From the NCBI GenBank assembly GCA_040766025.1, contig JAXGRH010000004.1, forward strand, positions 78,779-142,778: a stretch of DNA of 64,000 bases. The letters are read 5' to 3'. Each line of letters opens with the position of its first letter. The first letter of the stretch is position 1. The position numbers were made by a program, and so were the translations under genes. This document shows positions 13,040 through 46,859 of the stretch, piece by piece. Below the pieces are notes generated by a model, which searched no databases, was not told where the DNA came from, and saw only the letters and a list, made by a program, of their open reading frames with translations. The DNA comes from Clostridia bacterium (GTDB taxonomy: Bacteria > Bacillota > Clostridia > Saccharofermentanales > DTU023).

Positions 13040-13076
13040 TTTACGGCGTAAGCCTCCTTGTTTTCTTTGATCAGTC

Positions 13077-13583: not shown

Positions 13584-13730
13584 GCTCTCCTCCCCGCGGT
13601 ATCCGCGCAATCTTCGGCTTTTGGACTGTGTCTGTATTATCGCACGAGTTAGCGCATATGCGTGACACTGTAACGGATGACAATTGAATTCTTATTGACA
13701 ATTCATGTCCTCTTTATGACCTTGGGTGAT

Positions 13731-14735
13731 TTAACTTAAGAAATCACTGAAGATTCTATCAAATAAGGCATTGACACTCGACTGAGCCTCCGACGCCAAG
13801 CTTTCATAGCGGTAAAGCAAATCGCGGCCGGCGTCCGTCAAACGAGAACTGCCGCCCTCCTGCCCCCCCGTCCTTCGCTCAATCACCTGCTGCCCCAGCT
13901 GTTCCTCTAAGAGATTTAAAATTTGCCATCCCTTGCTGTAGGACAGCTTCATGCGAACACAGGCGGTACGCACAGAACCGGTCTCATCGATGAGCCGGAG
14001 AAGCGTGGCGGGTCCGGGCCCGAAAAATACTGTTTCGCGCGCCAATCCAAGTTTTATGCGGGCGCGCATCGGCAAATGTAACGCCGTCCCTTGAGCCCCC
14101 AGATCGTCATCGAAGTCTTCTGTGACACTTAAAGCCGACAAAATCCCCTGATCCGGCACCTCAATTCTTTCCACATATTCCGGGGCTATCCGGGTGAAAT
14201 CCGACAGAGTCCCGTCACCTTTAATTTTTTCGAACTCTGAAACGACCGCCTTATCAAACACAATCGGCAGTCCCTCAATCCCTTCAAACACCGGTACGCT
14301 CAAAGGGCTTTTGGACGAGAGTAACTGTGTTAAGGTCTCTGTCGATACCGCGGGAATTAAAGGGGTTGCCAGAAGGATCTTTTTGCAGGCGTCGCAGGTT
14401 CTCGATACATACAAGATCCCCTCCATCGCGTCTGCGAATAGGGAGCTGTCTTTCCAGTTTTCGATATTCAGGCAGACCACGCCCATCTTGGAAAGATTGC
14501 GCTCCAGTTGTTCATTTTCAAATCCGGTGATGACCACGATGGGAGCGACGCCGAGGGTTTGCAAGCGGATGATCACCCGCTCTAAAAAAGTCACCTGACC
14601 CGCTTTAATCATCGCGGGCAAGACACGCTTTCGCCCACCGCTCAAACCGGAGACAGAGTCTTTCGGTTCGAGCGGTTTTGAGGCGACAATCACGGCCGCC
14701 CCGCGAAGTACATTTGTTTTCAGCGGGTTGTTCAC
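13731..14735 (-). CDS. MobA/MocA-like nucleotidyltransferase domain fused to a ModE-type winged-helix DNA-binding domain
   Basis: The N-terminus AAVIVAS...GGRKRVLPAMIKAGQVTFLERVI...VVITG is MobA-like NTP-transferase. The C-terminus GSVRTACVRMKLSYSKGWQILNLLEEQLGQQVIERRTGGQEGGSSRLTDAGRDLL is ModE N-terminal-like HTH. Confidence 0.55.
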   Translation of the reverse strand: MNNPLKTNVLRGAAVIVASKPLEPKDSVSGLSGGRKRVLPAMIKAGQVTFLERVIIRLQTLGVAPIVVITGFENEQLERNLSKMGVVCLNIENWKDSSLFADAMEGILYVSRTCDACKKILLATPLIPAVSTETLTQLLSSKSPLSVPVFEGIEGLPIVFDKAVVSEFEKIKGDGTLSDFTRIAPEYVERIEVPDQGILSALSVTEDFDDDLGAQGTALHLPMRARIKLGLARETVFFGPGPATLLRLIDETGSVRTACVRMKLSYSKGWQILNLLEEQLGQQVIERRTGGQEGGSSRLTDAGRDLLYRYESLASEAQSSVNALFDRIFSDFLS

Positions 14736-14740
14736 ATCAT

Positions 14741-17317
14741 TTAAGATTTTTTCTTGCGGTAGAACGTGTCCTCCATGGGGAGACTTGTCCGCATCTTCCC
14801 GTCCAGCCTGTAGTAAGCATGCGCGACAGAAGGCGCGATCGGCACGCAGGCAAGCTCACCGATTCCGCGAGCCCCGTAGGCGACATCCACGTATCCCGGG
14901 CCCTTCACAATATGGGTCTCCATCTCAGGGATGCGGTTCGCGCGGAACAGGCCATAGGTCCCCAGTTTAAATTTCGGGATGCCTCCGGGATTGACAAATT
15001 CTTCTGTCAAGGCGTAGCCAAGGCTCATGACACAGCCGCCTTCGATCTGACCTTCAACGGCGGTAATGTTCACCGGCGTGCCGACGTCATAGGCACCGAC
15101 CATTTTTTGGAGTTCGCCTTTTTCATCGATCAGGGCAACCTCACAGCCATAGCTGTAGCCGATATGGCTTACGGGGTTCTCTTTATCGGAACCGAGCGGA
15201 TCGGTCGGGGGACCAAATTCACCAAAGAATTCCATCCCTTCGATCTTTGAAATATCGCCTCCGGCAGCGTCAAGGGCCGCTTTCAAGTCGGCCGCCGCCT
15301 GACGCGTCGCCTCACCTGTGAAGAGGGTCTGCCTTGAGGCGGTACTCGTCCCCGCGTCCGGTGTGCGATCCGTGTCGGGCATCTCGAAGACAGTATCGGT
15401 GACCTCACAGTTCAATGTCTGACACACGATGGCAGTGACCATCTGCGCGACGCCCTGCCCGGAGCAAGCCGCCGATGTGCGAATGTGAATTTTGCCCTTT
15501 TCAACCGACAAGGTGCAGCGCCCGAAGTCAGGCACGCCGACCCCGAGTCCGCTGTTTTTAAAGCCGCAGGCAAGTCCCGCGTAGGGGCTTGAGTCGTAAG
15601 CCTCTTTTACGGCTTCGAGGCACTCGGCCAAGCCGCAGCTCTCGTCCACAATCTGGCCGTTCGGCAACACATCGCCGGGCCTTACGACGTTGAGGTAGCG
15701 GAAATCCCAGGGATCCATCCCGCATTTAGCGGCCAAAAGATTCAGGTTCGATTCCATGGCGTAGCAACTTTGCGTGACACCAAAACCGCGGAAGGCACCG
15801 GATACGACATTATTCGTATAGACGGCCTTGCCTGTGATATCAACATTTTGGAAATTGTAAGGGCCGCCCGCGTGTGTACAGGCCCTTTGGGTAACAGGGC
15901 CGCCCAATGAGGCGTAGGCGCCCGTGTCCGCGATGATCTCCGCGATAAGCGCGGTGATTCTTCCATCCGCGTCGCAGGAGGTAGTCATCTTCATCGTCAT
16001 GGGGTGGCGCTTGGTGTGCATGATCGTGCTCTCATAGCGCGACAGCGTCACGTTCACACGCAGGCCGGTCTTCCATGCCAACAGTGCCGCGTGATGCTGC
16101 ACACTCATGTCTTCACGGCCACCAAAGGCGCCGCCGACCAGGGCGGAGCGGATATGAACCTGCTCCGGTTTAAGCTGCAGCATATTCGATACTTCGCGCT
16201 GTTCATCGTAGATGGACTGCGACGCCGTGATCATATGGACGCCGCCATCCTCTGAGGGCCAGGCAATCGCGGTTTCTGTTTCCAAGAAAGCGTGCTCTTC
16301 CCAAGACACGCGGTAGGTTTCTGTCACCACATGCGCCGCTTCGGCCACCGCTTTATGCGCGTCGCCGCGAATCAGGCGTTCACTTGACAGGATGTTGCCG
16401 TTCTTATGGATCTTCGGGGCGTCTTCTTTCATCGCCTCGAAAGGATCCAATACCGGTTCAAGTTCTGTGTAATCGACTTCGATTAAATCGAGCAGCTCTT
16501 GGAGGCTTTCGCGTTTTTTCGACGCGACCAAGGCCACAGAATCCCCGATAAAGCGCGTGACTTCCCCTTGGGGGATCATGACATCCCAGTCCTGGACAAT
16601 ATGCCCTATGGTGTTGTTGGGGACGTCTTTTGCGGTCAGCACCGTAATGCAGTCAGGATGCTCTAAGGCTTTTGACACGTCGATACGATTCACGCGTGCG
16701 CGCGGATACGGCGTGCGAAGCGCCCTGCCGTATACCATGTCATCAAATTGGAAGTCATCAGGGAATTTGCCCGTGCCAAGCACCTTTTCGGCGACGTCGA
16801 CACGTGGCGACCGGTCCCCGACGCGTACGTCGAAATCAAGGGACGGAACCTCTTCACCTGTCGCAAAAAAGCGCGCGGCCATTTCGATCGCGTCAATGAT
16901 CTTTTTGTAGCCAGTACAGCGACATAAATTGCCCGTGATCGCCTTCGCGATATCGTCTCGCGTAGGCTCGGGGTTTTTATCAAGTAGCACCTTGGCGGCC
17001 ATAACCATCCCCGGCGTGCAGTATCCGCATTGCACGGCACCCGCCTCCCCGAAGGCGTGAACGTAGACTTCCTTTTCTCTTGGCGAAAGGCCCTCTACGG
17101 TAATAATGTTTGCGCCGTCATAGCGTGAGACTTTCATTATGCAGGCTTTGACAAGCTTACCGTCAATATCGACGGAGCATGTTCCGCAGGCGCCCTCGCT
17201 GCATCCATCCTTGACAGAAGTAAGTCCGAGATCGTTTCTTAAGAAATCGATGAGCCGCTTATCTTCTTGGATGGTATATTGTTGATCGTTGACCGTTAAA
17301 GTCCAGGACATGGTCAT
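14741..17317 (-). CDS. molybdopterin-dependent hydroxylase with two N-terminal [2Fe-2S] domains and no FAD domain (xanthine dehydrogenase/aldehyde oxidoreductase family; selenium-dependent Mo-hydroxylase type)
   Basis: 858 aa. CSEGACGTCSVDIDG and QCGYCTPGMVM...CRCTGY are the [2Fe-2S] motifs. The Mo-binding body includes GGAFGGREDMS, and the ...CVPIAPSVAHAY tail follows. Confidence 0.8.
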   Translation of the reverse strand: MTMSWTLTVNDQQYTIQEDKRLIDFLRNDLGLTSVKDGCSEGACGTCSVDIDGKLVKACIMKVSRYDGANIITVEGLSPREKEVYVHAFGEAGAVQCGYCTPGMVMAAKVLLDKNPEPTRDDIAKAITGNLCRCTGYKKIIDAIEMAARFFATGEEVPSLDFDVRVGDRSPRVDVAEKVLGTGKFPDDFQFDDMVYGRALRTPYPRARVNRIDVSKALEHPDCITVLTAKDVPNNTIGHIVQDWDVMIPQGEVTRFIGDSVALVASKKRESLQELLDLIEVDYTELEPVLDPFEAMKEDAPKIHKNGNILSSERLIRGDAHKAVAEAAHVVTETYRVSWEEHAFLETETAIAWPSEDGGVHMITASQSIYDEQREVSNMLQLKPEQVHIRSALVGGAFGGREDMSVQHHAALLAWKTGLRVNVTLSRYESTIMHTKRHPMTMKMTTSCDADGRITALIAEIIADTGAYASLGGPVTQRACTHAGGPYNFQNVDITGKAVYTNNVVSGAFRGFGVTQSCYAMESNLNLLAAKCGMDPWDFRYLNVVRPGDVLPNGQIVDESCGLAECLEAVKEAYDSSPYAGLACGFKNSGLGVGVPDFGRCTLSVEKGKIHIRTSAACSGQGVAQMVTAIVCQTLNCEVTDTVFEMPDTDRTPDAGTSTASRQTLFTGEATRQAAADLKAALDAAGGDISKIEGMEFFGEFGPPTDPLGSDKENPVSHIGYSYGCEVALIDEKGELQKMVGAYDVGTPVNITAVEGQIEGGCVMSLGYALTEEFVNPGGIPKFKLGTYGLFRANRIPEMETHIVKGPGYVDVAYGARGIGELACVPIAPSVAHAYYRLDGKMRTSLPMEDTFYRKKKS

Positions 17318-17356
17318 TTCCTCCCCTAATTTTTAAATCATTTATTGTATCGCCAC

Positions 17357-18760
17357 TTAACGAATATCCACGTTCGGAAGTTTGCGTTTTAAGTATTGTC
17401 CGTCCGCTTCCTCAATCACAATCTTACCAGAGGCAAGCTTCCTTCGTCCGCGCAAGAATACATCGCGAATCTTTCCATTCATGGCAAAACCCTCGTAGGG
17501 TGTATAGTCGCAATTTTCGTGCAGCGCCTCCGATGTCAGCGTCCATTCAACATGGGGATCCAGAACGACGATGTCGGCGTCACTTCCTGCTTGGAGGATG
17601 CCTTTTTTCGGGTACAGGCCAAAATGTTTGGCCGCGTTGGTGGATGTCACGACCGAGTAGCGGTTGATATCCATACGCCCCTTGGCAACGCCATGGGAGT
17701 AAAGCAAGTGCATGCGTGTTTCAATCCCGGGGGCGCCATTTGGAATTTTTGAAAAATCATCACGACCCATTTCTTTTTGACCGACAAAATTGAAAGAGCA
17801 GTGATCGGTTCCGACAAACTGGATCTCCCCCGATGCCAGTCCGTCCCAGAGGGCCTCCTGATCGCGGCGTTCGCGCAAGGGCGGACTCATGATGTACTTC
17901 GCTGACTCGAAATCGTCGCTTGACGCAGTACCGTAGCGCGATGAATCAAGCAGCAAATACTGAGGGCATGTTTCAACAATGACTCCTATCCCGCGTTCCC
18001 GTGTGCGCTTAATCGCCGATAAGCCCTTCGCGGTCGACAGGTGAACGACATAATGATGGGCATTCAAAAGGGAGTTCACAGCCTCCAGCCGAACGATTGC
18101 CTCTTCTTCGAACACATCCGGGCGCGTCAGCTGGTGGTAGTAGGGGGATAGATGTCCCTTCGCCCGTTCTTCTTTTACCAACACATCGATGAGTAAGCCG
18201 TTTTCACAGTGAAATCCGATCGTCGCGCCAAGGCGTTTTGTTTCCTCCAAGGCGTCGTAGATTTCATCTTCTTGCACCATCATGTTGTTCTTGTACGCCA
18301 TGTACATTTTAAAAGAACTGATCCCGCCTGCCACAACCTCTTCCATCTCGGCTTTTAACGATTGATTCCATTCGGTCAGCGCCATATGAAATCCATAGTC
18401 GATGGCACAGTTCCCGTCGGCCTTTTCGTGCCAACGCTGAAGTCCGCGCGCCATGCATTCGCCGTGGAATTGCGTCGCAAAGTCGATGACGGTCGTCGTC
18501 CCACCCGCAAGCGCCGCGCGCGTGCCCGTCGCAAAATCGTCAGCGGTGACGGTGCCCATCGATTCGAGTTGGAGGTGGGTATGTGTTTCAATGCCTCCGG
18601 GCAATAAATACATGCCCGTACAGTCGATCACTTCCTCTCCCGGAAGGGGTGAAAGATTTCCGACCGCCTCGATGACTTCACCTCGGATGCGAATATCGCC
18701 TTGTATTGTCTCGTCGGGGAGGACAACGTAGCCGTCTTTCAGCAAAATTGTCTTTTCCAT
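17357..18760 (-). CDS. hyuA: dihydropyrimidinase/D-hydantoinase-type cyclic amidohydrolase (HyuA/YgeZ-like)
   Basis: LLPGGIETHTHLQ..., FKMYMAY, VVHLSTAKG and FVGTDHCSF are metal-ligand motifs of hydantoinases. Start moved to the ATG at 18760 (MEKTILLKDG) after AGAGGAAA, because the track's extension crosses a hairpin. Confidence 0.8.
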   Translation of the reverse strand: MEKTILLKDGYVVLPDETIQGDIRIRGEVIEAVGNLSPLPGEEVIDCTGMYLLPGGIETHTHLQLESMGTVTADDFATGTRAALAGGTTTVIDFATQFHGECMARGLQRWHEKADGNCAIDYGFHMALTEWNQSLKAEMEEVVAGGISSFKMYMAYKNNMMVQEDEIYDALEETKRLGATIGFHCENGLLIDVLVKEERAKGHLSPYYHQLTRPDVFEEEAIVRLEAVNSLLNAHHYVVHLSTAKGLSAIKRTRERGIGVIVETCPQYLLLDSSRYGTASSDDFESAKYIMSPPLRERRDQEALWDGLASGEIQFVGTDHCSFNFVGQKEMGRDDFSKIPNGAPGIETRMHLLYSHGVAKGRMDINRYSVVTSTNAAKHFGLYPKKGILQAGSDADIVVLDPHVEWTLTSEALHENCDYTPYEGFAMNGKIRDVFLRGRRKLASGKIVIEEADGQYLKRKLPNVDIR

Positions 18761-18779
18761 GAATTTTCCTCTTGAAAGC

Positions 18780-18808
18780 GCTGTGCCGGATACGTGATCC
18801 GGCACAGC
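18780..18808 (-). other. intercistronic GC-rich hairpin (ssnA | hyuA)
   Basis: GCUGUGCCGGA [7-nt loop] UCCGGCACAGC, an 11-bp stem with no clean U tract. Confidence 0.5.
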
Positions 18809-18846
18809 CGTTAAACTGTTGCTTCGTTAAGCTAAGGCCGCCATAA

Positions 18847-20169
18847 TTACAGATTCGGCCAAATGGTTGCCGCGCGCTCTTTTGTGCGGGCAAAGATCTT
18901 CTCTTCGTCAACCGTCTTGATCTCACGGTTTCTCATGATCACCTTACCGTTAATCACCACGTCGTTGGTCATGCGGCCGTAGCCTCCAAACAACAGGTGA
19001 CCCTTCCAGTTATCGGCCCCAAAGGGGGTGAAGGGATAGTAATCAAGGGTAATGATGTCCGCGTACGCGCCTTCTTTCAACACGCCCAACGGACGCTGGA
19101 AGTGCTGAGCCGCGATCGCGGGGTTGCCTTCGTACTGAAGCTTCAAGGCTTCGCCAAAGCCGACCGTGGGGTTGGCCAGACGGTGCGATTGCAGGATCTT
19201 TGACACCTTGATCGATTCGAACATGTCGTGCGTGTAGGCGTCTGTTCCAAGGCCTAAGCGAATGCCTCTGCGAAGCATACCGAGCACCGGAGTCGCGCCC
19301 ACCGCGTTCCCCATATTCGACATGGGGTTGTGCACCACGGAGGTGTCTGTCTCCGCCAAGATATCGAGCTCGCGTCCATTGACGTTAACCGCGTGGACCG
19401 CGATTGATTTAGGCCCGAGAAGTCCCCAGCCCAAAAGGCGCTCCGTCACGCGCATGTCGTATTTCTCGAGGCTGTCGTACTGGTCTTCGCGCCCTTCTCC
19501 CACGTGGATGTGGTAGCCGGCGTCGATGCCTTCCATCGCGTCTTTCACTTTTTCCATGGTCTCATCGGAGATGGTGAATGACGCGTGCATACCGAACATG
19601 CCTTTAATCATGTCCTGCTCATCGGTGTTCATGGCCTTGATAAAGTCCACGTTTTCTTTGATCTCGCGCTCAGCGACTTCAACGCCGTCACGATCCGAGA
19701 GTTCCATTGAGAAGGAGCCGCGGATACCGATCTCTTTGGCCGCTTCCGCCAGGGTAAACAGTGAACCGGTCGCCGAGTGCGGGCTCGCGTGGTGATCAAA
19801 AAGCGTTGTGACACCATTGCGGATGCTGTCGATATACGTCGTGTACGCGGACAGGGAGTTGTCCTCTTCTGTCAAGCTGCGGTCAAGCGCCCACCAGAGA
19901 TTTTCCAAAATTTCCGGAAAATTCCTTGTCGGCTTTGACACGCCCATGCCGCGCGCGTATGAACTGTAGATATGGGTATGCGCGTTGATCATGCCGGGCA
20001 TGATCACACGGCCCTCTGCATCCAGCACTTCATCTTCCGGATACTTGGCCTTCAATTCCTCAAAATCGCCGACCGCATCCACTAGCTCGTCCACGATGCG
20101 GATCGCGCCATTTTCAAAATAAGGATGATCGGGATCGTTTGTCACGAGTCGTCCATTACCCATAATCAT
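18847..20169 (-). CDS. ssnA: SsnA-type aminohydrolase (chlorohydrolase/deaminase amidohydrolase family)
   Basis: 440 aa. PGMINAHTHIYSS, ...HIHVGEG..., ...AVHAVNV... and ...LGTDAYTHDMFE. Size and context match E. coli SsnA. Confidence 0.75.
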   Translation of the reverse strand: MIMGNGRLVTNDPDHPYFENGAIRIVDELVDAVGDFEELKAKYPEDEVLDAEGRVIMPGMINAHTHIYSSYARGMGVSKPTRNFPEILENLWWALDRSLTEEDNSLSAYTTYIDSIRNGVTTLFDHHASPHSATGSLFTLAEAAKEIGIRGSFSMELSDRDGVEVAEREIKENVDFIKAMNTDEQDMIKGMFGMHASFTISDETMEKVKDAMEGIDAGYHIHVGEGREDQYDSLEKYDMRVTERLLGWGLLGPKSIAVHAVNVNGRELDILAETDTSVVHNPMSNMGNAVGATPVLGMLRRGIRLGLGTDAYTHDMFESIKVSKILQSHRLANPTVGFGEALKLQYEGNPAIAAQHFQRPLGVLKEGAYADIITLDYYPFTPFGADNWKGHLLFGGYGRMTNDVVINGKVIMRNREIKTVDEEKIFARTKERAATIWPNL

Positions 20170-20187
20170 TTACTTCCTCCTGTCATG

Positions 20188-20218
20188 TCCGTCCCAGGCT
20201 CTGGAAGCCTGGGACGGA
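20188..20218 (-). other. intercistronic GC-rich hairpin (ygfK | ssnA)
   Basis: UCCGUCCCAGGC [7-nt loop] GCCUGGGACGGA, a 12-bp stem directly upstream of the ssnA AGGAGG RBS. Confidence 0.5.
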
Positions 20219-20234
20219 AAGTCGTTTTCATTCA

Positions 20235-23200
20235 TTAATGTTCATTGTTCAACAGCCAGGGATATTCTGTGGTAACCGCTGTTATGACGGCTGTCATTTC
20301 TTTCCCGGCTTTCGCTTCCAACTCGCTGGCCAAAGCGTCGAAGACACGGCCGCGCTCGTCGCGGATGCGGTAGGCCTGATCGGTCAATTTTAGGAAGCCA
20401 ATATTTTCTGAATCGGCGAAATCCGCTTCACTCCAGAACACGGTGAGCTTATCTTTGTAAGGTTTCCCCGCGTGCGGACAGAAGGTCGCGCAGTTTCCGC
20501 ATTCATTACACATGCCGTCGATATGGACGATCTGTTCTGAATTGACAAAGCCTGCGACCGTGATGGCCACGTTCGCGCGGTTCGGGCAGACCTCTGTACA
20601 GATCCGGCAGACCTGGTCGCAGATGAGGCAGCGCAGTCCTTCTTCGGAGGGCAGGCGTCCGGCGACTAATTCGCCGCGGCGTTCCACAATGGTCGGCTCA
20701 TCGACGGGAACCTCGATGTGCACAAAGTCATGTTCCAGTGCTTCTTTTTCGAGAATGTCAAGGGCTGCTTTTTTAGCGTCCCCCATGGCCGCGACAACGG
20801 TGGAAGGACCTTTGCGGCAGTCGCCGACGACATACACGCCGTCAATGGAGCTCTCCATCGCCGATGACAGGCGGGGATCGCCGTAGGAATCAACGTTCAT
20901 GCCCAAGGTCTCAAACAAACTCTTGTCAACGCGGGCACCTGTCGCGCCGATCACGGTGTCAAATGCCAGGGTTTCAAATTCGCCTGTGCCGACTGAGGCT
21001 CTGCGCCCTGAATCGTCAAAGGCTCCGAGCTGTTGTTTTTCACAGACAAGCGCTTTGCCGTCATAGCTCACCGGTGCGAGCAGTTCGCGCCAGAGGACGC
21101 CCTCTTCCATGGCGCCGTCAAATTCGTCCTGACTGGCAGGCGCGTACATCTCTGTTCTGCGGTACACGATGGTGACTTCAGGATCACCCGGCATACGCTT
21201 GGCGAGGCGGGCGGCGTCCATGGCGACGTCACCTGCGCCGATGACCGCAATTTTCTTACCGAGATCGCGTTCGCCGTTTTCGTTCACATCGATGAGGAAA
21301 TCGAGCGCGTCGATGACGCGGTCAGCACCTTCTTTGACCGGTGAACGGCCTTTATCCCAAGCGCCGGTCGCGATGACGACGTAGTCATGGGTTTTCTTCA
21401 ACTCTTTTAGATCAAATTTAGGATCGGCGTTGAAGTGGAAGTTGACGCCTGTCGCTTCAACGAGTCTGAAGTCGCGGTCAATCTCTTCTTTCGAAATACG
21501 GAAAGAAGGAATTGCATAGCGGACGATCCCGTGTGAAGCAGAACGCTTCTCGTATACGTCTGTCGCGATGCCGTTGCGTCTCAGGTAGTAGGCCGCAGCC
21601 ATACCGCCCGGCCCCGCCCCGATGACCGCCACTTTTTTATCGCTCTTCAAAGCGCTTTGGGCTATTTGGCCGATGTAGGCATCTTGTGCCTCGTCCGCGG
21701 CCTTCTTCTTGATGTCGCGCATATGGACTGACTCATCGTAGTCAAGGCGTGTGCAGTGCTCACGGCAAGGCTGTGCGCAAAGGACGCCGGTGATGGTCGG
21801 ACAGGGGTTGTCAATGGCGATGACGCGCATGGCTTCATCGTACTCGCCTCGGGCGACCAGGGTGTTGTATTCAGGGATCTGTTGCTCGATGGGGCAGCCG
21901 CCGTCTTTACAGGGTGCCTTGTAGCAGTCGTAAAGGGGTAACTCTGATTCGGTCTTCCTGGAGGCGACTTTTTCGCGCCAGCGCTTTTGCATGCGCGGGT
22001 CCGCCAGCATCTTATCGGCCAGTTGATCGAGTTTTTTAAGATCGACTTGTCCGGGATTTCCAAGCACATCTTCCGTCTCACGCGCCATCTGGTAGAAGCG
22101 CATATAGCCGCCCGGTTTCAACAGGGTAGTTGCCATGGTCACGGGACCGATACCTACTTCTAGGATATCTTTCAGGTTAAAGGCGTCCGCGCCACCCGCA
22201 AATGAGATCGGGAGCTTGCCGTCGAAGGCTTTGGATAATTTGACCGCCAGATTAATGGTGAGGGGCATCAAAGAGCGGCCCGACATGTACATTTCTTCTG
22301 AAGGCACTTCATTGCGTTTGACGTCAACGGGGCATGTGTTGGACAGCTTCACGCCGAAGGCTAAGTCTTTTTCCTTGGCCACGTTTAACATGCGCGTGAA
22401 AATACCGACCGCGTCATCGTATTGCAGGTCGGCCAAGAAGTGTTTATCCGGGAACTGGATGTAGTCGTATCCGAGGTTGTCAAGCGTTTCACGGACGTAT
22501 TCGTAACCCAGCATCGTCGGGTTACATTTGACGAAGGTGTGAAGGTGTTTTTCTGTCAAGAGGTAATGCGCGATACGCTCGATTTCGTCAGGCGGACAGC
22601 CGTGCAAGGTTGATAAGGTGACCGAATGACAAAGCGAGGGAGAGATCGCGTCGACCACCGCTTCATCGACTTTTTCGAACGCGTCGAGATGATCTTTCAA
22701 ATAGGCGATGGCCTCTTTAAAAGCGGGCGTGTCTGACGCATCCTTCAAGCCTTCGATGAAGGCGTCCATTTTCGGCAATTTGATGCCATCAAGATCGTAA
22801 CCGACGCTCATGTTGTAGGCAAAATCATGTCCGTCTGAAAGACCGAACTCAACGGAAAGCACCTTGATCGCTACCCAAGCCTTGACGTACTCATCAAATG
22901 CTTCTTCAACGGTTAATTCGGTCGACCATTCGCAGTTGTAACACTCGTCTTCCGCGTTGATACAAGGTTTTGCAACGGCGTGACGAATTTCTTCACCATC
23001 CATCTTTTGGACGGTTTTCAATTCCATAAAGCGAGCGCCCGCAAGGTAGCTCACAATGATGTTTTGTGCCAGCTGAGAGTGCGGACCGGCCGCGGGGCCA
23101 ACTGCCGAAGCGATTTTTTCACCAAAGGGCGTCGTAAAACGGCTCCCTTTTTCATTTACATAAAATTTGCTCTTATCGAGTCCAAAAACACGTCCTTGTT

Positions 23201-23267
23201 TTTTATACTCCGCGAGGCTCCATTCGATCAGGTTCGCAAAACTAATGGGTCTCATGATATCGCTCAT
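20235..23267 (-). CDS. ygfK: YgfK-type multidomain Fe-S flavoprotein ('putative selenate reductase subunit YgfK' family)
   Basis: 1010 aa. N-terminal DPD/DHOD-like barrel, central Cys clusters (CPIEQQIPEY..., CAQPCREHC), GltD-like dinucleotide folds (VAVIGAGPGGMAAAYYL, IAVIGAGDVAMD), and a C-terminal 2x[4Fe-4S] region (CLICDQVCRICTEVCP...CNECGNCATFCP). Confidence 0.8.
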   Translation of the reverse strand: MSDIMRPISFANLIEWSLAEYKKQGRVFGLDKSKFYVNEKGSRFTTPFGEKIASAVGPAAGPHSQLAQNIIVSYLAGARFMELKTVQKMDGEEIRHAVAKPCINAEDECYNCEWSTELTVEEAFDEYVKAWVAIKVLSVEFGLSDGHDFAYNMSVGYDLDGIKLPKMDAFIEGLKDASDTPAFKEAIAYLKDHLDAFEKVDEAVVDAISPSLCHSVTLSTLHGCPPDEIERIAHYLLTEKHLHTFVKCNPTMLGYEYVRETLDNLGYDYIQFPDKHFLADLQYDDAVGIFTRMLNVAKEKDLAFGVKLSNTCPVDVKRNEVPSEEMYMSGRSLMPLTINLAVKLSKAFDGKLPISFAGGADAFNLKDILEVGIGPVTMATTLLKPGGYMRFYQMARETEDVLGNPGQVDLKKLDQLADKMLADPRMQKRWREKVASRKTESELPLYDCYKAPCKDGGCPIEQQIPEYNTLVARGEYDEAMRVIAIDNPCPTITGVLCAQPCREHCTRLDYDESVHMRDIKKKAADEAQDAYIGQIAQSALKSDKKVAVIGAGPGGMAAAYYLRRNGIATDVYEKRSASHGIVRYAIPSFRISKEEIDRDFRLVEATGVNFHFNADPKFDLKELKKTHDYVVIATGAWDKGRSPVKEGADRVIDALDFLIDVNENGERDLGKKIAVIGAGDVAMDAARLAKRMPGDPEVTIVYRRTEMYAPASQDEFDGAMEEGVLWRELLAPVSYDGKALVCEKQQLGAFDDSGRRASVGTGEFETLAFDTVIGATGARVDKSLFETLGMNVDSYGDPRLSSAMESSIDGVYVVGDCRKGPSTVVAAMGDAKKAALDILEKEALEHDFVHIEVPVDEPTIVERRGELVAGRLPSEEGLRCLICDQVCRICTEVCPNRANVAITVAGFVNSEQIVHIDGMCNECGNCATFCPHAGKPYKDKLTVFWSEADFADSENIGFLKLTDQAYRIRDERGRVFDALASELEAKAGKEMTAVITAVTTEYPWLLNNEH

Positions 23268-23437
23268 TATTTTGATACCTCTCCTTCTTCTTTCATTTCC
23301 AATATTATCTCGCCATATCCCGAATTGTCTTTGATACCAGTTTTAAGAGTCACTGTTTCCTCGCGTTGCAAGATTGACGCGGGATTAAACGGCTCATTAT
23401 TCATATTACCAGTTTTTGATTGTGTACTATGCCAAAT

Positions 23438-23473
23438 TAAAAAAACCGGGACTTTCGAAATGAAAGTCCCGGT
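23438..23473 (-). terminator. intrinsic terminator after ygeY
   Basis: ACCGGGACUUU [loop] AAAGUCCCGGU followed by UUUUUUU on the minus strand. Confidence 0.75.
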
Positions 23474-23493
23474 CGAGTAATCACATACTCAGC

Positions 23494-24717
23494 TTACGCT
23501 TCGCTGGTGATGTTGTGGTAGACGGCCGGTACCGCACTGTAGATGGCGGCGACGCGCACGACGTCTTCTTTCCACTGGATTTCGTTCGGTGCGTGAGCCT
23601 GAGCTTCCTTACCAGGGCCTAAGCCAATGCAGGGGATGCCGTGGCGGCCCATGATGGCCACACCGTTGGTGGAAAATGTCCACTTGTCGACTTTCGGTAC
23701 GCCGTAAAGCTCTGTGTAAGCTTCAACGAGCGCCAAGGTCTGCGGTGCATCTTCCGGAATGACCCAGGTCGGGAAGTAGCAGTCTTGCTCGTACACTTCA
23801 CCGGTCCATGACGGACGGTCGTATTTGTACATCGAGACGACCGCACCGTGCTTCTTGACGGACGGAAGGTCTTCGATCTCTTTCAAGGCGGACTGGTAGG
23901 TCTCACCCCATGTGAGACGACGGTCAAGTGAGATGGCGCAGCTGTCGGCGACAGCACAGCGTGAAGGCGATGTGTAGAAAATCTGTGAGGTGGTGACGGT
24001 GCCCTTGCCGAGGAAGGGGTCATCTTTCAGATTGTTGTTCAGCTCTTCGATTTCTTTCAGGATGTCAGCCATTTTGTAGATGGCGTTTTCACCGCGCTCA
24101 GGGGCGGAGCCGTGGCAGGAGATGCCGGCGACGTCCACACGGATCTCCATACGTCCGCGGTGTCCGCGATAAACGTGCATGTCGGTCGGTTCACTGACCA
24201 CGACAAACTCGGGACGGATGTTGCTACGCTCGATGAGGTGGAGCCAGCACATGCCGTCACAGTCTTCTTCCTGAACGGTCCCTGTGACAAGGAGTTTGTA
24301 CTCATCGCCGATGAGGCCGAGTTCTTTGGCCATGTATGCGCCGTAAACGGACGACACCACGCCACCGAGCTGGTCGGATCCGCCGCGGCCGCCGATTTCG
24401 GTTTCAGTCTCGAAGCCTTCGTAGGGATCAAATTCCCAGTTTTCAATATTGCCGATGCCGACGGTGTCGATGTGGCCGTCGTAGGCAATGATGCGATCGC
24501 CTTTACCGATCCAGCCCAGGACGTTGCCCAAGGGATCGATTTCAGCTTTATCGTAGCCCAGCTTTTCCATCTCTTCTTTGATACGGTAAGCCTTGTCTTT
24601 TTCTTCACAGCTCTCTCCGCCGATCTTGATCAGATCGCGAAGGAAGCGAACCATATCCTCTTCGTGGCTCTTTGCGAGCTCGCGGATACGATCGTAGTCA
24701 ATCTGCATTTTCGCCAT
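23494..24717 (-). CDS. ygeY: YgeY-type M20-family metallohydrolase ('selenium metabolism-linked hydrolase')
   Basis: [30 protein letters not shown]...DGHIDTV...[10 protein letters not shown]...EEDCDG. Start moved to the ATG at 24717 after AGGAG, because the track's extension to 24795 runs through a terminator hairpin. Confidence 0.8.
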
Positions 24718-24756
24718 GTTCGTGTTACTCCTTTTTTTTGGATTATATTGGTATGC

Positions 24757-24788
24757 AAAAGACTGCCTCCCCGAAACGGGAGGCAGTC
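24757..24788 (-). terminator. terminator/attenuator hairpin between ygeW and ygeY
   Basis: GACUGCCUCCC [6-nt loop] GGGAGGCAGUC followed by UUUUGCAU on the minus strand. Confidence 0.6.
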
Positions 24789-24805
24789 CATTCAACCGGA
24801 ATTAT

Positions 24806-26002
24806 TTAGGCATTGTCCGCCCAGCGGGGGGTGGTGCCATTCCAGAGCTCGTCAAGCTTCGCGCCGGGGTTCTTAATCTTCTGGAGGAAAATCATCGCCG
24901 CGATGACGTAAGGCTTGTAGCTTGCTTCTTTATAAAGCGGGATACGGTAACGATCAAAGACTGACTCATCCACTTCGCCTTCCGCGCAGGAAAGACCCGT
25001 GATGTCGGCCGGCAGACAGTGCATGTAAAGTGCTTTGCCGTCGCGTGTCAGGCTCATCATTTCTTCGGTGCAGGCCCAGTCTTTATGAAGGGCGTTCTGC
25101 GCCAGAAGCTCTTGCTCGAGCGCGTGGATACCGGCCTGGTCGCCCTTGGCGTACAGGTCTGTACGTTTTTCCATCGCACTGAACGGTGCCCAGCTCTTGG
25201 GGTACACGATGTCAGCGTCCTTGAACGCTTCCGCCATGGATTCGACGCGAGTGAATTTGCCGCCGTACATTTCTTCGTTGTGCTTGGCGACGCCTTCGAT
25301 TTCGTCCATGATCTCGTAGCCTTCGGGGTGCGCCAAGACAACGTCCATGCCAAAGCGTGTCATCAGGCCGATGACGCCCTGGGGCACTGAGAGCGGTTTA
25401 CCGTAAGACGGTGAGTAGGCCCATGTCATGGCCACTTTTTTGCCGCGCAGGTTTTCCACGCCACCGAACTCATGGATCATGTGAAGTGTATCCGCCATCG
25501 TCTGGGTCGGGTGATCGATGTCGCACTGGAGGTTGACAACGGTCGGGCGCTGTTCGAGCACGCCATCGTTGAAGCCTTCGGTGATGTATTCAGAAACGTT
25601 CTTCATGTACGTATGGCCTTTGCCGATGTACATGTCATCACGGATACCGATGACGTCCGCCATGAAGGAAATCATGTTGGCCGTTTCTTTTACGGTTTCT
25701 CCGTGCGCGATTTGGGACTGACCCTCATCGAGATCCTGGATTTCGAGCCCTAGGAAGTTACAAGCCGAAGCAAATGAAAAGCGCGTTCTCGTCGAGTTGT
25801 CGCGGAACAGCGAAATGCCAAGTCCCGAGTCAAAAATACGGGCGCTCTTATTGTTCTCACGCAGTTCGCGCAGGGCGTCGGCCACCGCGAAAATTGCCAT
25901 GATTTCATCCTGAGATTTATCCCATGTCAGGAAGAAATCGTCCTGGTACAACCCTTTGTAGTCGTAGCCTTCCAGTTGCTTGATCAGTTCGTTGATTTTC
26001 AT
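24806..26002 (-). CDS. ygeW: YgeW-type knotted carbamoyltransferase
   Basis: 398 aa. FRDNSTRTRFSFASA (the STRTR carbamoyl-phosphate motif), HPTQTMAD and HCLPA. Length and context match YgeW. Confidence 0.8.
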   Translation of the reverse strand: MKINELIKQLEGYDYKGLYQDDFFLTWDKSQDEIMAIFAVADALRELRENNKSARIFDSGLGISLFRDNSTRTRFSFASACNFLGLEIQDLDEGQSQIAHGETVKETANMISFMADVIGIRDDMYIGKGHTYMKNVSEYITEGFNDGVLEQRPTVVNLQCDIDHPTQTMADTLHMIHEFGGVENLRGKKVAMTWAYSPSYGKPLSVPQGVIGLMTRFGMDVVLAHPEGYEIMDEIEGVAKHNEEMYGGKFTRVESMAEAFKDADIVYPKSWAPFSAMEKRTDLYAKGDQAGIHALEQELLAQNALHKDWACTEEMMSLTRDGKALYMHCLPADITGLSCAEGEVDESVFDRYRIPLYKEASYKPYVIAAMIFLQKIKNPGAKLDELWNGTTPRWADNA

Positions 26003-26040
26003 TCGTATCTCATTCCTCTCTTGAAATTAGGATCAGCGAA

Positions 26041-27516
26041 TTAAAGTCTTGCGAGGACGCCTGTGCGCTCGTTAAACTCTTCTGTCAGTCTGTCGATTTC
26101 CTCGACCTGCTTATGGACGTTGTCCCAGTAGTGCTCGTCGTACCACTGCGCGTTCAGCTCTTCGAGCGTGCGGCCCTGTTGCTCAACCCAGGTGTAGTAC
26201 TTGAGGTTGTGGATGCGCTTACGCGACATGTAGGTCAACTCTTCCATGTTGTCGGTCTTGGTGGACGCCAGGTGATGCCAGTAATCGCGCGCGGCGACTT
26301 CGGCCGTGTAGGGTCCTTGTTGTTCGTCAAGCTCGATGATGCGTGAACCGTACATCTCAGCGGAGTCGGTCGCAACGGTCATCAGGACATCGTTTCCGGT
26401 CAATTCGTAGTATTTTGCCATCTTGATCAGGCCGATCACGTTCGCGATACCGCTGATGCCCAACAGTGAGAGATTCGAAATCTGCTCTTCTGTCAGGTTG
26501 AGATGGGTTCTCAGATACTCGTGGCCGACTTCTGTGTTGAACAGGCGCAACAGATTCTGTGAATCGTTGTCGTCGATCGCAACAGCCATGTCAGTGTTTT
26601 TCACGTTGTGGACGAAGGGGATATGCTTGTCGCCGATACCTTCGATGCGGTGACGGCCAAAGCCGTTGTTCAGGATGGTCGGGCACTGGAGTGCTTCACC
26701 GACTGCCACTTTGATATGCGGGAAATGGTCTTTCAGGTAGTCGCCGGCACTCATGGAGCCGCCGCTGCCGCTGGTGAAGAAGACGCCGAAGAATTTCGAG
26801 TCATCGGTCTTGACTTCGCCGTAGACTTCTTCCAAGGCGGGGCCGGTCACGTTGTAATGCCACATGACGTTGCCCATTTCTTCGAACTGATTAAAAATAA
26901 AGGCTTCCGGGCGGGTCGCGCGGATTTCTTTGACTTTCGCAAAGATCTCATACACGTCGCTCTCACAGCCGGGGGTCGCGATGGTTTCATCGGCAACACT
27001 CAACAGCCAGTTGTGGCGCTCTTCACTCATTTCCTCGGGCAAAATCGCGATGGATTTCACGCCGAGCAATTTTGAGTTAAAAGCACCGCCGCGGCAGTAG
27101 TTGCCGGTGGAAGGCCAGACAGCCCAGTTGGACATCGGGTCAAATTGTCCCGTCACGAGGCGAGGCACGAGGCAGCCGTAGGAGGCGCCCACTTTATGAC
27201 AGCCTGTCGGGAACCATTTGCCGATCATGACGAAAATACGTGCATCAATACCGGTCAGAGCTTTTGGCATTTCAATGTAGTTGACGCCGCCATAGGTACC
27301 GCCGTCAAGGGTCGGCTCATTTTTCCAGGTAATGCGGAACAGGTTCAAGGGGTCGATATCCCAGGTGCCTACTCCGTGAAGAGCCTCTTTGATTTTTTCG
27401 GGAACATTTTTGACGGGATCACGCATTTGCGCATAGGTCGGGATGATAATGTTGTTTTCGCGCGCGCGTTGTACCGCGTTCTCGAGCGCGTCCTTATGGA
27501 TCGTAAGATCGATCAT
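26041..27516 (-). CDS. fold-type II PLP-dependent enzyme, TrpB/OrtB-like ('PLP-dependent lyase/thiolase' type)
   Basis: GKWFPTGCHKVGASYG is a putative PLP-lysine motif, and FFTSGSGGSMSAG is a Gly-rich phosphate loop. Start moved to the ATG at 27516 (MIDLTIHKD) after AAGGAGA. The track's 29-aa His-rich extension has no RBS. Confidence 0.55.
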   Translation of the reverse strand: MIDLTIHKDALENAVQRARENNIIIPTYAQMRDPVKNVPEKIKEALHGVGTWDIDPLNLFRITWKNEPTLDGGTYGGVNYIEMPKALTGIDARIFVMIGKWFPTGCHKVGASYGCLVPRLVTGQFDPMSNWAVWPSTGNYCRGGAFNSKLLGVKSIAILPEEMSEERHNWLLSVADETIATPGCESDVYEIFAKVKEIRATRPEAFIFNQFEEMGNVMWHYNVTGPALEEVYGEVKTDDSKFFGVFFTSGSGGSMSAGDYLKDHFPHIKVAVGEALQCPTILNNGFGRHRIEGIGDKHIPFVHNVKNTDMAVAIDDNDSQNLLRLFNTEVGHEYLRTHLNLTEEQISNLSLLGISGIANVIGLIKMAKYYELTGNDVLMTVATDSAEMYGSRIIELDEQQGPYTAEVAARDYWHHLASTKTDNMEELTYMSRKRIHNLKYYTWVEQQGRTLEELNAQWYDEHYWDNVHKQVEEIDRLTEEFNERTGVLARL

Positions 27517-27633
27517 GTTTTTTCTCCTTGCTTTGTGATGATGATGTGCTGGTGCTGGCGAGAAGTAATTGATTGCCCACACCCCAGCCACTATAGCATA
27601 CATATAAAAAGGTAAAGAGTAAAGTGCCTCATT

Positions 27634-28440
27634 TTACCTTTGAAACCGCTCATTTGTTACATCCGTTTCCGAAAGACGTCGCTCTTCTTCTTCCGCCTTT
27701 CGGTTAAGACGTTTGTAATACATAATACCGATTCCGGCAACCACTGCCGTAACCGTGAATACGGCTATGCCAAAAACATAATTTTGTGTTCCTAATAAGC
27801 CCCCGCTGACCGTCGAGGTCACCACTGAAATGAGGCGCGCCGAAATGATGACAAGCCAACTTGAAAGCCGCATCGGTGTCAACCCCGCAAGATAGGTCAG
27901 GATATCTTTGGGGGTGCCGGGAATAAAGAGCAAAAGGTACATCAAGATGTTGAGACGACCGGGCTCCCGAAACAGCCGCACCTGATCAATCCGTTCAGCT
28001 TCAAAGAACAATTCAATCACAGAGCGCCCATAGCGCTTGACGAGCAAAAAGATGAGGGTGCTGGCCGCATAGATGGCCGCCATACAGATGATCGTCCCTT
28101 CCAAAGCGCCGAATGCGTAGCCGGCCGCAAGCTCGAAAGGTTCACCCGGGATAATGGCGATGATTACTTGCAGGAAATTCGCGATGAAGAAAATCAGGCG
28201 GCTGGCCACAGGATAGTTGCCCACCATCGCGCGCACCCTGGTCGGGTCGGAGAAAAAGTCAATGGCCGTTTCGCCCCAAATCAAGTAAATTAAAACAAAG
28301 ACCGCAATCGTCACAACGACCCAACCGATGGCCATGGATCGCTGAAACACGCGCCGCCTGTATCGACGGTACGCTGCTTGTGCCGGCCGGATGATGCGGC
28401 AGTTGTTATTTTCTTTGATGCCTGTCATTTTCTCTGTCAT
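27634..28440 (-). CDS. TVP38/TMEM64 (DedA-superfamily) membrane protein
   Basis: 268 aa, multi-TM, with IIAIIPGEPFELAAGYAFG and LFIPGTPKDILTYLAGLT motifs. Confidence 0.7.
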   Translation of the reverse strand: MTEKMTGIKENNNCRIIRPAQAAYRRYRRRVFQRSMAIGWVVVTIAVFVLIYLIWGETAIDFFSDPTRVRAMVGNYPVASRLIFFIANFLQVIIAIIPGEPFELAAGYAFGALEGTIICMAAIYAASTLIFLLVKRYGRSVIELFFEAERIDQVRLFREPGRLNILMYLLLFIPGTPKDILTYLAGLTPMRLSSWLVIISARLISVVTSTVSGGLLGTQNYVFGIAVFTVTAVVAGIGIMYYKRLNRKAEEEERRLSETDVTNERFQR

Positions 28441-45770: not shown

Positions 45771-45815
45771 GATGGCGGATAATGATCCGAAATAACAGGC
45801 AAAGGAGGTATGCTC

Positions 45816-46859
45816 ATGTCTGAACAAAAGATACGTCTGACACAGATGACCCAAGCGGGCGGTTGAGGCGCGAAGATAGGACCGGCGGTTCTTTCCCAGC
45901 TTCTTTCAGGATTACCCCGCGTGTCGGACGAGCGCCTCCTCATCGGTTATGATTCCGATGACGATGCCTGTGTGTACCTCGCTTCGGAAGATGTTGCCAT
46001 CATTCAAACGATTGACTTCTTCCCTCCGGTGGTGGATGACCCTTACGACTACGGCTGCATCGCAGCAGCCAACGCCCTAAGTGATGTCTACGCCATGGGG
46101 GCCACACCGAAAACCGCGCTGAATCTGCTTTGCTTTTCCAGCTGTCTCGACTTGGATGTCGTGCGGAAAATTCTGGAAGGAGGCGCCGATAAATGCCTTG
46201 AGGCAGGTGCCAGCATCGCGGGCGGCCACAGTATCGAAGACGAGGAACCCAAATACGGACTTTCCGTTATGGGTTTATGCCATCCAGATAAGATACGGCG
46301 CAATGATACACCGAGAATAGGTGATCTCCTCGTACTGACGAAACCACTGGGCACAGGCGCACTCTCTACGGGCTTGAAGGCAGAGCTGATCCGAGAGGAG
46401 TCGATCAAAAAATTAGTCGACACCATGGCAAAGCTCAACAAATATGCCTTTGAAGCCTCGATCGGCCTCGACGTATCGGCTTCCACCGATGTCACAGGCT
46501 TTGGCCTTCTGGGTCACGCCAGAGAGATGGCGGGAAAAGAAAATCGGGTGACCATCGAGATCGACAGCGAAAAGCTTCCGCTTTTGCCTGAAGCGCTCGA
46601 GATGGCCCAAGACGGCATGCTGCCCGGCGGCTGTTATCGTAACCGCGGCTTTGTCGGTGATCGAGTCCAATTCGATGAAGGGGTACCCTTGGCTTTGAGT
46701 GATCTGATGTTTGATCCTCAGACCTCCGGCGGATTGCTGTTAGCAATGCCCGAAAAAGACGCTACAACCTACCTTTCGACCATGCATGAGCAAGGTGAAG
46801 GAGCTTGGGTGATAGGGCGCGTCAAAGCCTTCGAAGGGGTCGCGATCAAAGTCCGCTAA
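45816..46859 (+). CDS. selD: selenide, water dikinase SelD containing selenocysteine (in-frame TGA at 45864-45866)
   Basis: The ORF track starts at an internal GTG (45921). Upstream in the same frame, the ATG at 45816 follows AAAGGAGG and gives MSEQKIRLTQMTQAGG-U-GAKIGPAVLSQLLSGLPR. The TGA falls exactly where SelD has its catalytic Cys/Sec (GxGCK/GUGxK loop). The total of 347 codons matches typical SelD length. Confidence 0.85.
45872..45895 (+). promoter_or_regulatory. candidate SECIS hairpin downstream of the selD UGA
   Basis: Hand fold GGACC-GGC-GGUUC, extendable by A-U pairs. The apical loop is about 21-23 nt after the UGA, similar in position to the E. coli fdhF SECIS loop. Confidence 0.35.

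Follow-up and report, generated by a model that had tools for sequence, protein, structure and literature searches.

A probable urate-degradation cluster in a Saccharofermentanales bacterium with a CysK-like enzyme in the usual place of YgeX/DpaL

Which purine-degradation route is encoded by a block of eight genes found in a member of the Saccharofermentanales, and which of its products would carry out the last step, are the questions raised by the 64,000-nucleotide stretch of DNA analyzed here (hereafter the window; Clostridia bacterium, lineage DTU023, assembly GCA_040766025.1, contig JAXGRH010000004.1, positions 78,779 to 142,778 of the forward strand). An earlier interpretation made from the letters alone (the sequence-only reading) had described the block as a selenium-linked molybdenum (Mo) hydroxylase cluster whose steps were still largely unassigned. 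Our analysis indicates that it probably encodes the Clostridia-type reductive (2,8-dioxopurine) pathway of anaerobic urate degradation in two transcription units, with a 491-amino acid (aa) pyridoxal phosphate (PLP) enzyme, designated PLP491, in place of YgeX/DpaL. The membership of six enzymes in their families, the gene order, the operon structure, the lack of DpaL in the window and the statistics on gene neighbourhoods come from the present analysis; the chemistry of all steps but the last is taken from the literature on the E. coli and C. sporogenes orthologues. The absence of DpaL, with PLP491 in its stead, is the only non-canonical feature of the cluster.

The gene block and the pathway it would encode

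Eight minus-strand open reading frames (ORFs) lie back to back and fill positions 13731-27603. The true start of the last one is the ATG at 27516, preceded by an AAGGAG ribosome-binding site, in agreement with the end coordinate (27516) and the eight consecutive genes that the sequence-only reading had given. The features of the cluster are the following, with scores in bits:

27634..28440, minus strand: VTT/DedA-family membrane protein, 268 aa (Pfam VTT_dom, 50 bits)
26041..27516, minus strand: PLP491, fold-type-II PLP enzyme, 491 aa (PF00291 the sole family match)
24806..26002, minus strand: YgeW knotted carbamoyltransferase (TIGR03316, 765 bits, cut-off 500)
23494..24717, minus strand: YgeY M20 amidohydrolase, 407 aa (TIGR03526, 628 bits, cut-off 321)
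23444..23474, minus strand: intrinsic terminator between ygeY and ygfK (13-bp GC-rich stem and T run)
20235..23267, minus strand: YgfK (DOPOR) Fe-S flavoprotein (TIGR03315, 1346 bits, cut-off 835; Pfam Fer4_20, Pyr_redox_2, Fer4_9)
18847..20169, minus strand: SsnA amidohydrolase (NF005540, 588 bits, cut-off 444; TIGR03314, 528 bits)
17357..18760, minus strand: HyuA D-hydantoinase, 467 aa (TIGR02033, 570 bits, cut-off 393)
14741..17317, minus strand: selenium (Se)-dependent Mo hydroxylase of the XdhAC/DOPDH type (TIGR03311, 1264 bits, cut-off 830)
13731..14735, minus strand: nucleoside triphosphate (NTP)-transferase/helix-turn-helix (HTH) fusion, 334 aa (PF12804 and a ModE-N-type HTH)

The most likely start of ygeY is the ATG at 24717 (407 aa; ORF call at 24795), as judged by its ribosome-binding site and by orthologues of 407 aa, and that of hyuA is the ATG at 18760 (467 aa; ORF call at 18805), as in relatives. 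Curated NCBIfam cut-offs were passed by six of the eight products, namely the Mo hydroxylase, the hydantoinase, SsnA, YgfK, YgeY and YgeW, all of which had been assigned to these families from the letters; the family-level search with hidden Markov models (HMMs) thus returned the expected subfamilies and did not refute the assignments.

The block is contiguous, as had been claimed, but it is not a single operon. The intergenic gap between ygeY and ygfK measures 226 bp and contains the terminator at 23474-23444, followed by a promoter-like site at 23331-23304, and the block therefore comprises at least two transcription units: a lower one with the genes for PLP491, YgeW and YgeY, separated by gaps of 38 bp (PLP491-ygeW) and 88 bp (ygeW-ygeY), and an upper one with ygfK, ssnA, hyuA and the genes for the Mo enzyme and the fusion protein. 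The VTT membrane protein gene, 117 bp from the PLP491 gene, is perhaps a further member of the lower unit. It is kept directly upstream of the PLP gene in the related loci L001, L002, L159 and L167-L170, at 62-75% identity, and its membership of the urate pathway is uncertain; its position at a cluster without any nucleobase permease raises the question of a role in transport. An Rfam search of positions 12500-29500 for riboswitches or leader RNAs gave no match at E<=1.

The description of the steps as largely unassigned, and of the substrates of YgeW, YgeY, SsnA and YgfK as unproven, is outdated, because in two studies published in 2025 the entire pathway was rebuilt in vitro and each of its steps received an assignment (10.1101/2025.04.24.650524; 10.1101/2025.05.19.654654). 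In it, urate is converted through 2,8-dioxopurine, ring opening, 2,3-diureidopropionate and 2,3-diaminopropionate (DAP) to pyruvate (10.1101/2025.04.24.650524; 10.1101/2025.05.19.654654). XdhD or XdhAC (DOPDH) reduces urate to 2,8-dioxopurine, whose ring is then reduced by YgfK (NADPH-dependent in E. coli); SsnA opens the reduced dioxopurine ring and HyuA the second ring, giving 2,3-diureidopropionate; YgeW (with carbamate kinase) and YgeY take off the two ureido groups; and YgeX/DpaL turns DAP into pyruvate. Induction by urate and a requirement for anaerobic urate consumption are on record only from orthologues, those of C. sporogenes, C. saccharolyticum, E. bolteae and E. coli. The link that the sequence-only reading had drawn to anaerobic urate and purine breakdown agrees with this reconstituted pathway of the orthologues.

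By analogy, the FAD-less, Se-dependent Mo enzyme of the upper unit would strip the 6-oxo group from urate to give 2,8-dioxopurine, YgfK would reduce the ring, and SsnA and then HyuA would open the two rings, leading to (R)-2,3-diureidopropionate. In the lower unit, YgeW would phosphorolyse one ureido group to carbamoyl phosphate, with ATP gained via a carbamate kinase encoded elsewhere, YgeY would hydrolyse the other to leave DAP, and PLP491 would eliminate the beta-amino group of DAP via aminoacrylate, yielding pyruvate and ammonia.

The closest described counterpart is the uric-acid cluster of C. sporogenes (Liu et al. 2022, 2025), composed of xdhAC (DOPDH), ygfK (DOPOR), ssnA, hyuA, ygeW, ygeY, ygeX and pbuX. 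Both clusters encode a single-polypeptide FeS and Mo hydroxylase without an FAD subunit, together with YgfK, SsnA, HyuA, YgeW and YgeY, and in neither is there a carbamate kinase gene; the C. sporogenes pathway is, in addition, SelD-dependent. Unlike that of C. sporogenes, the window cluster lacks ygeX/dpaL and a xanthine/urate permease gene and has the genes for PLP491, the VTT protein and the NTP-transferase/HTH fusion. The equivalence proposed earlier with the E. coli region (ygeW-ygeX-ygeY-hyuA-yqeA / yqeBC / mocA / ygfK-ssnA-ygfM-xdhD; Li et al. 2025) holds at the level of families, since YgeW, YgeY, HyuA, YgfK and SsnA are common to both, as is a cytidylyltransferase-like gene adjoining that of the Mo enzyme. 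On the other hand, the Mo enzyme of E. coli belongs to the TIGR03313 type and has a YgfM FAD subunit, NADH as donor and an insertion bearing E606, whereas the window enzyme is of the TIGR03311 type and has neither the insertion nor YgfM; and YgeX, YqeA, YqeB, YqeC and three permeases belong to the E. coli region and are not found in the window. A precedent for the non-orthologous replacement of a step is offered by C. difficile (Li et al. 2025), where UacX stands for YgfK and UacY for YgeW/YqeA, next to a Mo enzyme without FAD subunit; in the window the substitution would instead be at the last step (YgeX).

Pfam searches found two [2Fe-2S] and MoCo domains in the Mo hydroxylase and no FAD domain, as the sequence-only reading had it, and this domain set equals that of C. 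sporogenes XdhAC, which has been purified, converts urate to 2,8-dioxopurine and needs SelD. NAD(P)H is not used by the clostridial XdhAC/XdhD enzymes, which lack an FAD subunit. The window enzyme is 27-28% identical to E. coli XdhD and stays below the cut-off of the E. coli-type XdhD model TIGR03313 (239 bits, cut-off 1102). By analogy with XdhAC, we propose that it turns urate into 2,8-dioxopurine with a labile-selenium cofactor. Residue E606 of E. coli XdhD was discarded as a marker of DOPDH specificity, since it lies in an 11-residue insertion that is specific to the E. coli-type enzyme and absent here.

In the fusion protein encoded next to it, only the general domain PF12804 (NTP_transf_3), a weak match of MobA/MocA-like kind, passes its gathering threshold (32.4 bits against 27). 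The protein is not an equivalog match to MocA (TIGR03310, 34.6 bits, cut-off 186), it shows no significant similarity to E. coli MocA in BLASTP (E=0.048), and its HTH part scores 64 bits with TIGR00637, below the cut-off of 98.5, and is accompanied by no Mop domains, so that it does not qualify as a ModE. The family is small (42 clusters) and in relatives its gene always follows directly that of the Mo enzyme, where the protein may possibly serve in cofactor (MCD) maturation, in regulation, or in both.

Several usual partners had been reported as missing from the window, and our searches agree. With E. coli YgeX, YqeA, YqeB, YqeC, MocA, YgfM, XanQ, UacT and GhxQ as queries, tblastn found none in the window at E<=1e-10, and HMM scans of its large ORFs detected no carbamate kinase, YqeB, YqeC, YgfM/XdhB, NCS2 permease or YgeX; nor were carbamate kinase, YqeB/YqeC or a permease found in close relatives within flanks of 10 kb. 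Genes elsewhere in the genome would accordingly have to supply carbamate kinase, YqeB/YqeC and a urate permease. The lack of an in-cluster carbamate kinase and of an FAD subunit had been taken as a departure from the usual arrangement, a view that does not hold, as both have direct precedent in C. sporogenes and in clostridial XdhAC. Carbamate kinase is encoded outside the cluster in C. sporogenes (elsewhere on the chromosome) and in Collinsella, and its presence in the cluster is therefore not strictly defining.

PLP491 and its neighbours across genomes

PF00291 (PALP) is the only Pfam family that PLP491 matches. Its best NCBIfam score is with cysK (89 bits, cut-off 351), followed by cysKM (82, cut-off 344) and CBS (67, cut-off 510), all of them below the cut-offs. 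The DpaL models TIGR03528, TIGR01747 and NF006058 matched neither PLP491 nor any other ORF of the window at E<=1e-5, whereas E. coli YgeX, used as positive control, scores 651-697 bits with them. The nearest among the 60 sequence matches listed from the PDB are cysteine synthases (E ~1e-19). An AlphaFold (AF2) model of PLP491 (predicted local distance difference test, pLDDT, 84; predicted template modelling score, pTM, 0.88) gave, among the 50 Foldseek matches listed, BSAS/CysK/CBS proteins, beta-cyanoalanine synthase and O-ureido-serine synthase, with E ~1e-16 and a template modelling (TM) score of ~0.8; identity with the CysK/CBS core is 21-26%. By sequence comparison PLP491 is thus not a DpaL, and sequence and predicted fold place it closest to the CysK/CBS-type beta-substituted-alanine synthases.

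The earlier label of a "TrpB/OrtB-like" enzyme proved imprecise. An OrtB or TrpB identity was ruled out, as no TrpB/OrtB model was among the NCBIfam hits, and so was the corresponding fold, the PDB sequence and fold matches listed being CysK, CBS and beta-cyanoalanine synthase; the sole reminiscence of TrpB is the "HK" lysine motif.

Across 32 sequences, K108 (the Schiff-base lysine of a "CHK" motif), S136-T137-G138-N139 (STGNY loop) and the glycine-rich loop T248-S249-G250-S251 are invariant, and Cys106 and Cys278 are invariant in the PLP491 family. With CysK, CBS and beta-cyanoalanine synthase the protein shares the predicted core fold, the Schiff-base lysine, the STGN asparagine loop and the glycine-rich phosphate loop; it differs from CysK/CBS in the "CHK" motif, in Cys106/Cys278, in family-specific helical extensions at the N-terminus (~75 aa) and at the C-terminus (~110 aa), and in its purine-catabolic context. 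Like YgeX/DpaL (TIGR03528/TIGR01747), it is a fold-type-II PLP enzyme encoded beside ygeY and ygeW for which an aminoacrylate intermediate is expected, but it is ~90 residues longer, has N- and C-terminal extensions of its own and resembles the CysK/CBS rather than the dehydratase branch. The family is very large and unnamed, with at least 8000 matches and 60-80% identity across phyla, and its members carry no label beyond "pyridoxal-phosphate dependent enzyme" or "cysteine synthase". In their network, Li et al. coloured "YgeX" by PF00291, which would merge the DpaL and PLP491 types of enzyme.

The distribution of the family was analyzed in two samples, one of 80 genome loci centred on PLP491 with 10-kb flanks, and an independent metagenome set of 27 non-redundant loci centred on YgeY with at least 4 kb on both sides. 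Within 10 kb of the PLP491 gene, YgeY was found in 41 of the 80 loci, YgeW in 39 and carbamate kinase in 32, and YgeX in only three. In 53 loci the gene immediately beside the PLP gene encodes a ThrC-family protein that has a zinc ribbon at its N-terminus (NF006050, 321 bits, cut-off 303), and in 31 there is a YheO-like regulator; the lineage of the window has neither. Around YgeY, 14 of the 27 loci carry the PLP family together with its ThrC-like partner and no YgeX, eight carry YgeX only, five neither and none both, an anticorrelation between the PLP/ThrC-like pair and YgeX that reaches p=6e-4 in a Fisher test over 27 loci in which shared ancestry is ignored. The ThrC-like partner is present in all 14 pair-containing loci with full flanks. 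The PLP hits form two subfamilies, with 53-78% and 31-41% identity to the window protein, that align with each other from end to end. The ThrC-like gene may stand before or after the CysK-like one (for example at L050:7264-8520 and L085:7375-8607; the cases span L003-L161).

The linkage of PLP491 to YgeY, a carbamoyltransferase and carbamate kinase extends over Clostridia, Halanaerobium, Synergistota, Chloroflexota and one myxobacterial metagenome-assembled genome (MAG). Complete clusters with the PLP/ThrC-like pair and no YgeX were found in L047 and L066. Another locus without YgeX, L085, starts with an SsnA-like fragment (detected by tblastn), followed by a PydA/UacX-like reductase, a three-subunit xanthine dehydrogenase (XDH)-like enzyme, adenine deaminase, the ThrC-like and CysK-like proteins, YgeY, an ornithine carbamoyltransferase (OTC)-like protein and carbamate kinase. 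A Halanaerobium locus combines the pair with YgeY and a carbamoyltransferase as well as a xanthine permease and a TRAP transporter. In loci of the Oscillospiraceae type, PLP491 takes the place after the YheO-like regulator; in C. saccharolyticum, the tables of Liu et al., in the rows listed, give the urate-induced operon as YheO-DpaL-YgeY-YgeW-carbamate kinase-permease. Those rows, searched for urate induction of PLP491 or ThrC-like homologues, contain only DpaL-type clusters. RidA-like genes, which would be a sign of aminoacrylate release, were not among the recurrent neighbour families of PLP491, and our literature search found no paper on a CysK-like/ThrC-like pair beside ygeY or on a substitution of DpaL.

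From its fold class, the conservation of its motifs, its operon position and its distribution complementary to that of DpaL, we infer that PLP491 is most likely the terminal enzyme, converting DAP to pyruvate and ammonia by beta-elimination.

Uncultured Mageeibacillus/Saccharofermentanales MAGs are the genomes closest to that of the window. The order VTT-PLP491-YgeW-YgeY-YgfK-SsnA-HyuA-Mo enzyme-fusion recurs in L001, L002, L159 and L167-L171, so that the conservation of gene order, the other check proposed with the sequence-only reading, did not refute it either. In a sister Saccharofermentanales lineage (L164, L165 and L166), ygeW is followed directly by ygfK, with no ygeY in the cluster, and the PLP enzyme is kept (seen in L166). 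Positions 2-2781 of L166 match window positions 24811-27590 with 91.6% nucleotide identity over the PLP gene and ygeW only (99% amino-acid identity for the PLP enzyme), and the sequence runs on, without ygeY, into a ygfK that is just 76% identical; this locus is either a recombination mosaic or a chimeric low-coverage assembly. In many environmental clusters (L067:14644-15660, L085:11163-12203 and many YgeY-centred loci), the carbamoyltransferase beside YgeY is OTC-like and not a knotted YgeW. These proteins are 31-36% identical to YgeW, fall below all curated cut-offs, and may be relevant to the order of ureido cleavage, which is disputed.

Selenium genes and surroundings of the cluster

A selD-yedE-selA-selB locus had been noted at 45.8-52 kb, ~18 kb from the urate cluster, and is indeed present, a yedF-like gene included:

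45813..46859, plus strand: selD, selenophosphate synthase (TIGR00476, 347 bits, starting at model position 34)
46983-48089, plus strand: yedE
48121-48327, plus strand: yedF-like gene, 68 aa, YedF/TusA-like with a "GLSCPEP" motif
48329-48568, plus strand: small ORF, 79 aa
48643-50053, plus strand: selA, frameshifted
50050-51960, plus strand: selB

By analogy with C. sporogenes, the cofactor of DOPDH-type enzymes requires SelD. The selD gene of the window has an in-frame TGA at the catalytic Cys/selenocysteine (Sec) position, the upstream translation reading "MSEQKIRLTQMTQAGG*GAKIG" ("QAGG*GAKIG"), which indicates that SelD is itself a selenoprotein. ARAGORN detected no tRNA anywhere in the window, and hence no tRNA-Sec (selC). 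The selA gene is broken at ~49537-49541, just after the conserved GGP motif, with frame A ending in "...DKLLGGPRQHHYREKRIR*" and frame B continuing as "GSIIIGKKEYVERC..."; the break is either an assembly error or the mark of a pseudogene.

On its upstream side the cluster is flanked by the VTT/DedA protein gene, by genes for sortase-type pilins and by a two-component system of the LytTR type. The products of 28536-33944 and 34060-37090 are two large surface proteins whose domains are of the isopeptide-forming RrgB/SpaA type; their genes adjoin those for a histidine kinase (7TMR-DISM) and a response regulator of the LytTR type, an arrangement that represents a Gram-positive pilus/adhesin locus. 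Downstream are genes for a small membrane protein, an acyl-CoA ligase and an aminotransferase, and mnmA, ispE and dtd. The small proline-rich membrane protein (13077-13610, a 177-aa ORF between the fusion gene and the ligase gene) matched no curated family beyond a weak, sub-threshold MFS_1 hit; a permease remnant was ruled out, as the closest relative, L171, has it as a conserved small membrane protein of 167 aa. The ligase gene (11162-13039) contains an in-frame TAA at 11567-11569, where relatives have Glu and where the L171 orthologue is intact (625 aa); being TAA, and Glu in relatives, this codon was ruled out as one for selenocysteine.

Alternative explanations and significance

Several observations weigh against the proposed pathway or against the role given in it to PLP491. 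The search for DpaL spans the 64-kb window, and dpaL may be present in another part of the genome. A D configuration is proposed for the pathway intermediates, and CysK-type enzymes normally act on L-amino acids. The window lacks the ThrC-like partner that is usual in most other lineages, and PLP491 may be insufficient on its own. Five loci (L020, L021, L040, L100 and L151) contain both YgeX and a pair member; the two are therefore not strictly exclusive and could differ in role, and the statistic for their anticorrelation takes no account of shared ancestry. In 20 of the 80 PLP491 loci neither YgeY nor the ThrC-like partner lies within 10 kb, which fits a broader function. Finally, the selA frameshift, if real, would block the synthesis of Sec-containing SelD, and with it that of the Se cofactor.

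Some of these points would also fit the known pathway with a different division of labour, in which PLP491 is an enzyme of the beta-replacement or desulfhydrase type, merely co-located or co-regulated, that serves the metabolism of sulfur, selenium or serine, and a DpaL encoded outside the window handles DAP. The 20 loci without YgeY and partner and the five with both YgeX and a pair member speak for this reading; cysteine synthases, CBS and enzymes that produce H2S come closest to PLP491 in sequence and fold, and 60-80% identity across phyla suggests a central role. We nevertheless regard this as unlikely in view of the linkage of PLP491 to YgeY, carbamoyltransferase and carbamate kinase across phyla, of its anticorrelation with YgeX next to YgeY, and of its position in one transcription unit with ygeW and ygeY, separated by gaps of 38 and 88 bp. 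Improbable, too, is an action one step earlier, by which PLP491 would beta-eliminate urea or carbamate from 2-amino-3-ureidopropionate (albizziin) and render YgeX, and in some lineages YgeY, dispensable. As a beta-substituted alanine, albizziin belongs to the class of substrates on which the CysK family acts, and it is the product of YgeW according to Li et al.; O-ureido-serine synthase is among the fold matches of PLP491, and the L164-L166 clusters run PLP491-YgeW-YgfK-SsnA-HyuA-XdhD without an in-cluster ygeY. Yet YgeY is present in the window and beside PLP491 in half of the loci, no urease was seen, ygeY may lie elsewhere in the L164-L166 genomes, and Liu et al. have the ureido groups cleaved in the reverse order, in which case the alpha-amino group would not be free for PLP chemistry.

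A cluster that is present but inactive, through a broken supply of the Se cofactor (frameshifted selA, Sec-dependent SelD) or through true loss of accessory genes, could be read from the lesion at ~49537-49541, from the premature TAA in the neighbouring ligase gene, and from the lack of YqeB/YqeC, carbamate kinase and permease genes in the window and within 10 kb in relatives. However, the eight ORFs of the cluster are intact and keep their family-invariant residues, isolated lesions, two in 64 kb, are rather the pattern of errors in assembly or sequencing, and dispersed accessory genes have precedent, all of which makes inactivity quite improbable. Hardly credible is a generic aldehyde/xanthine oxidoreductase with enzymes of the reductive pyrimidine pathway and no urate pathway at all: HyuA does also match dihydropyrimidinase models, and the domains of YgfK are common to dihydropyrimidine dehydrogenase and the GltD family, but all six proteins score above the YgfK, SsnA, YgeY, YgeW and Se-dependent XDH-type cut-offs and far below those for aldehyde oxidoreductase (447, cut-off 1100), PucD (451, cut-off 784) and OTC or aspartate carbamoyltransferase, and in C. 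sporogenes and C. saccharolyticum the same gene set is induced by urate and required according to genetics.

We therefore retain reductive urate degradation ending in PLP491 as the probable function of the cluster, which represents a further lineage (Saccharofermentanales) of a solved pathway with an undescribed variant of the last step. It is also possible, and we put it forward tentatively, that the CysK-fold PLP family, usually with its zinc-ribbon ThrC-like partner, is an unrecognised non-orthologous replacement of DAP ammonia-lyase in many Clostridia (Oscillospiraceae, Ruminococcus-like lineages, Christensenellales and Saccharofermentanales) and in other phyla. A 2025 commentary (PMC12990295) names three remaining questions of the pathway, namely in which order the ureido groups are cleaved, what donates electrons to XdhAC, and the stereochemistry; PLP491, if it is the functional substitute, would touch the first and the last of these. 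The disposal of urate by intestinal anaerobes is relevant to gout and to chronic kidney disease, and work is under way to engineer the pathway into probiotics. If the replacement is real, surveys that count only carriers of dpaL would overlook a large share of the gut bacteria that degrade urate, and the end of the pathway, its stereochemistry included, would be wired differently in carriers of PLP491; an annotation gap would be closed for thousands of proteins now called "pyridoxal-phosphate dependent enzyme" or "cysteine synthase", and the marker sets for uricolytic bacteria would be corrected.

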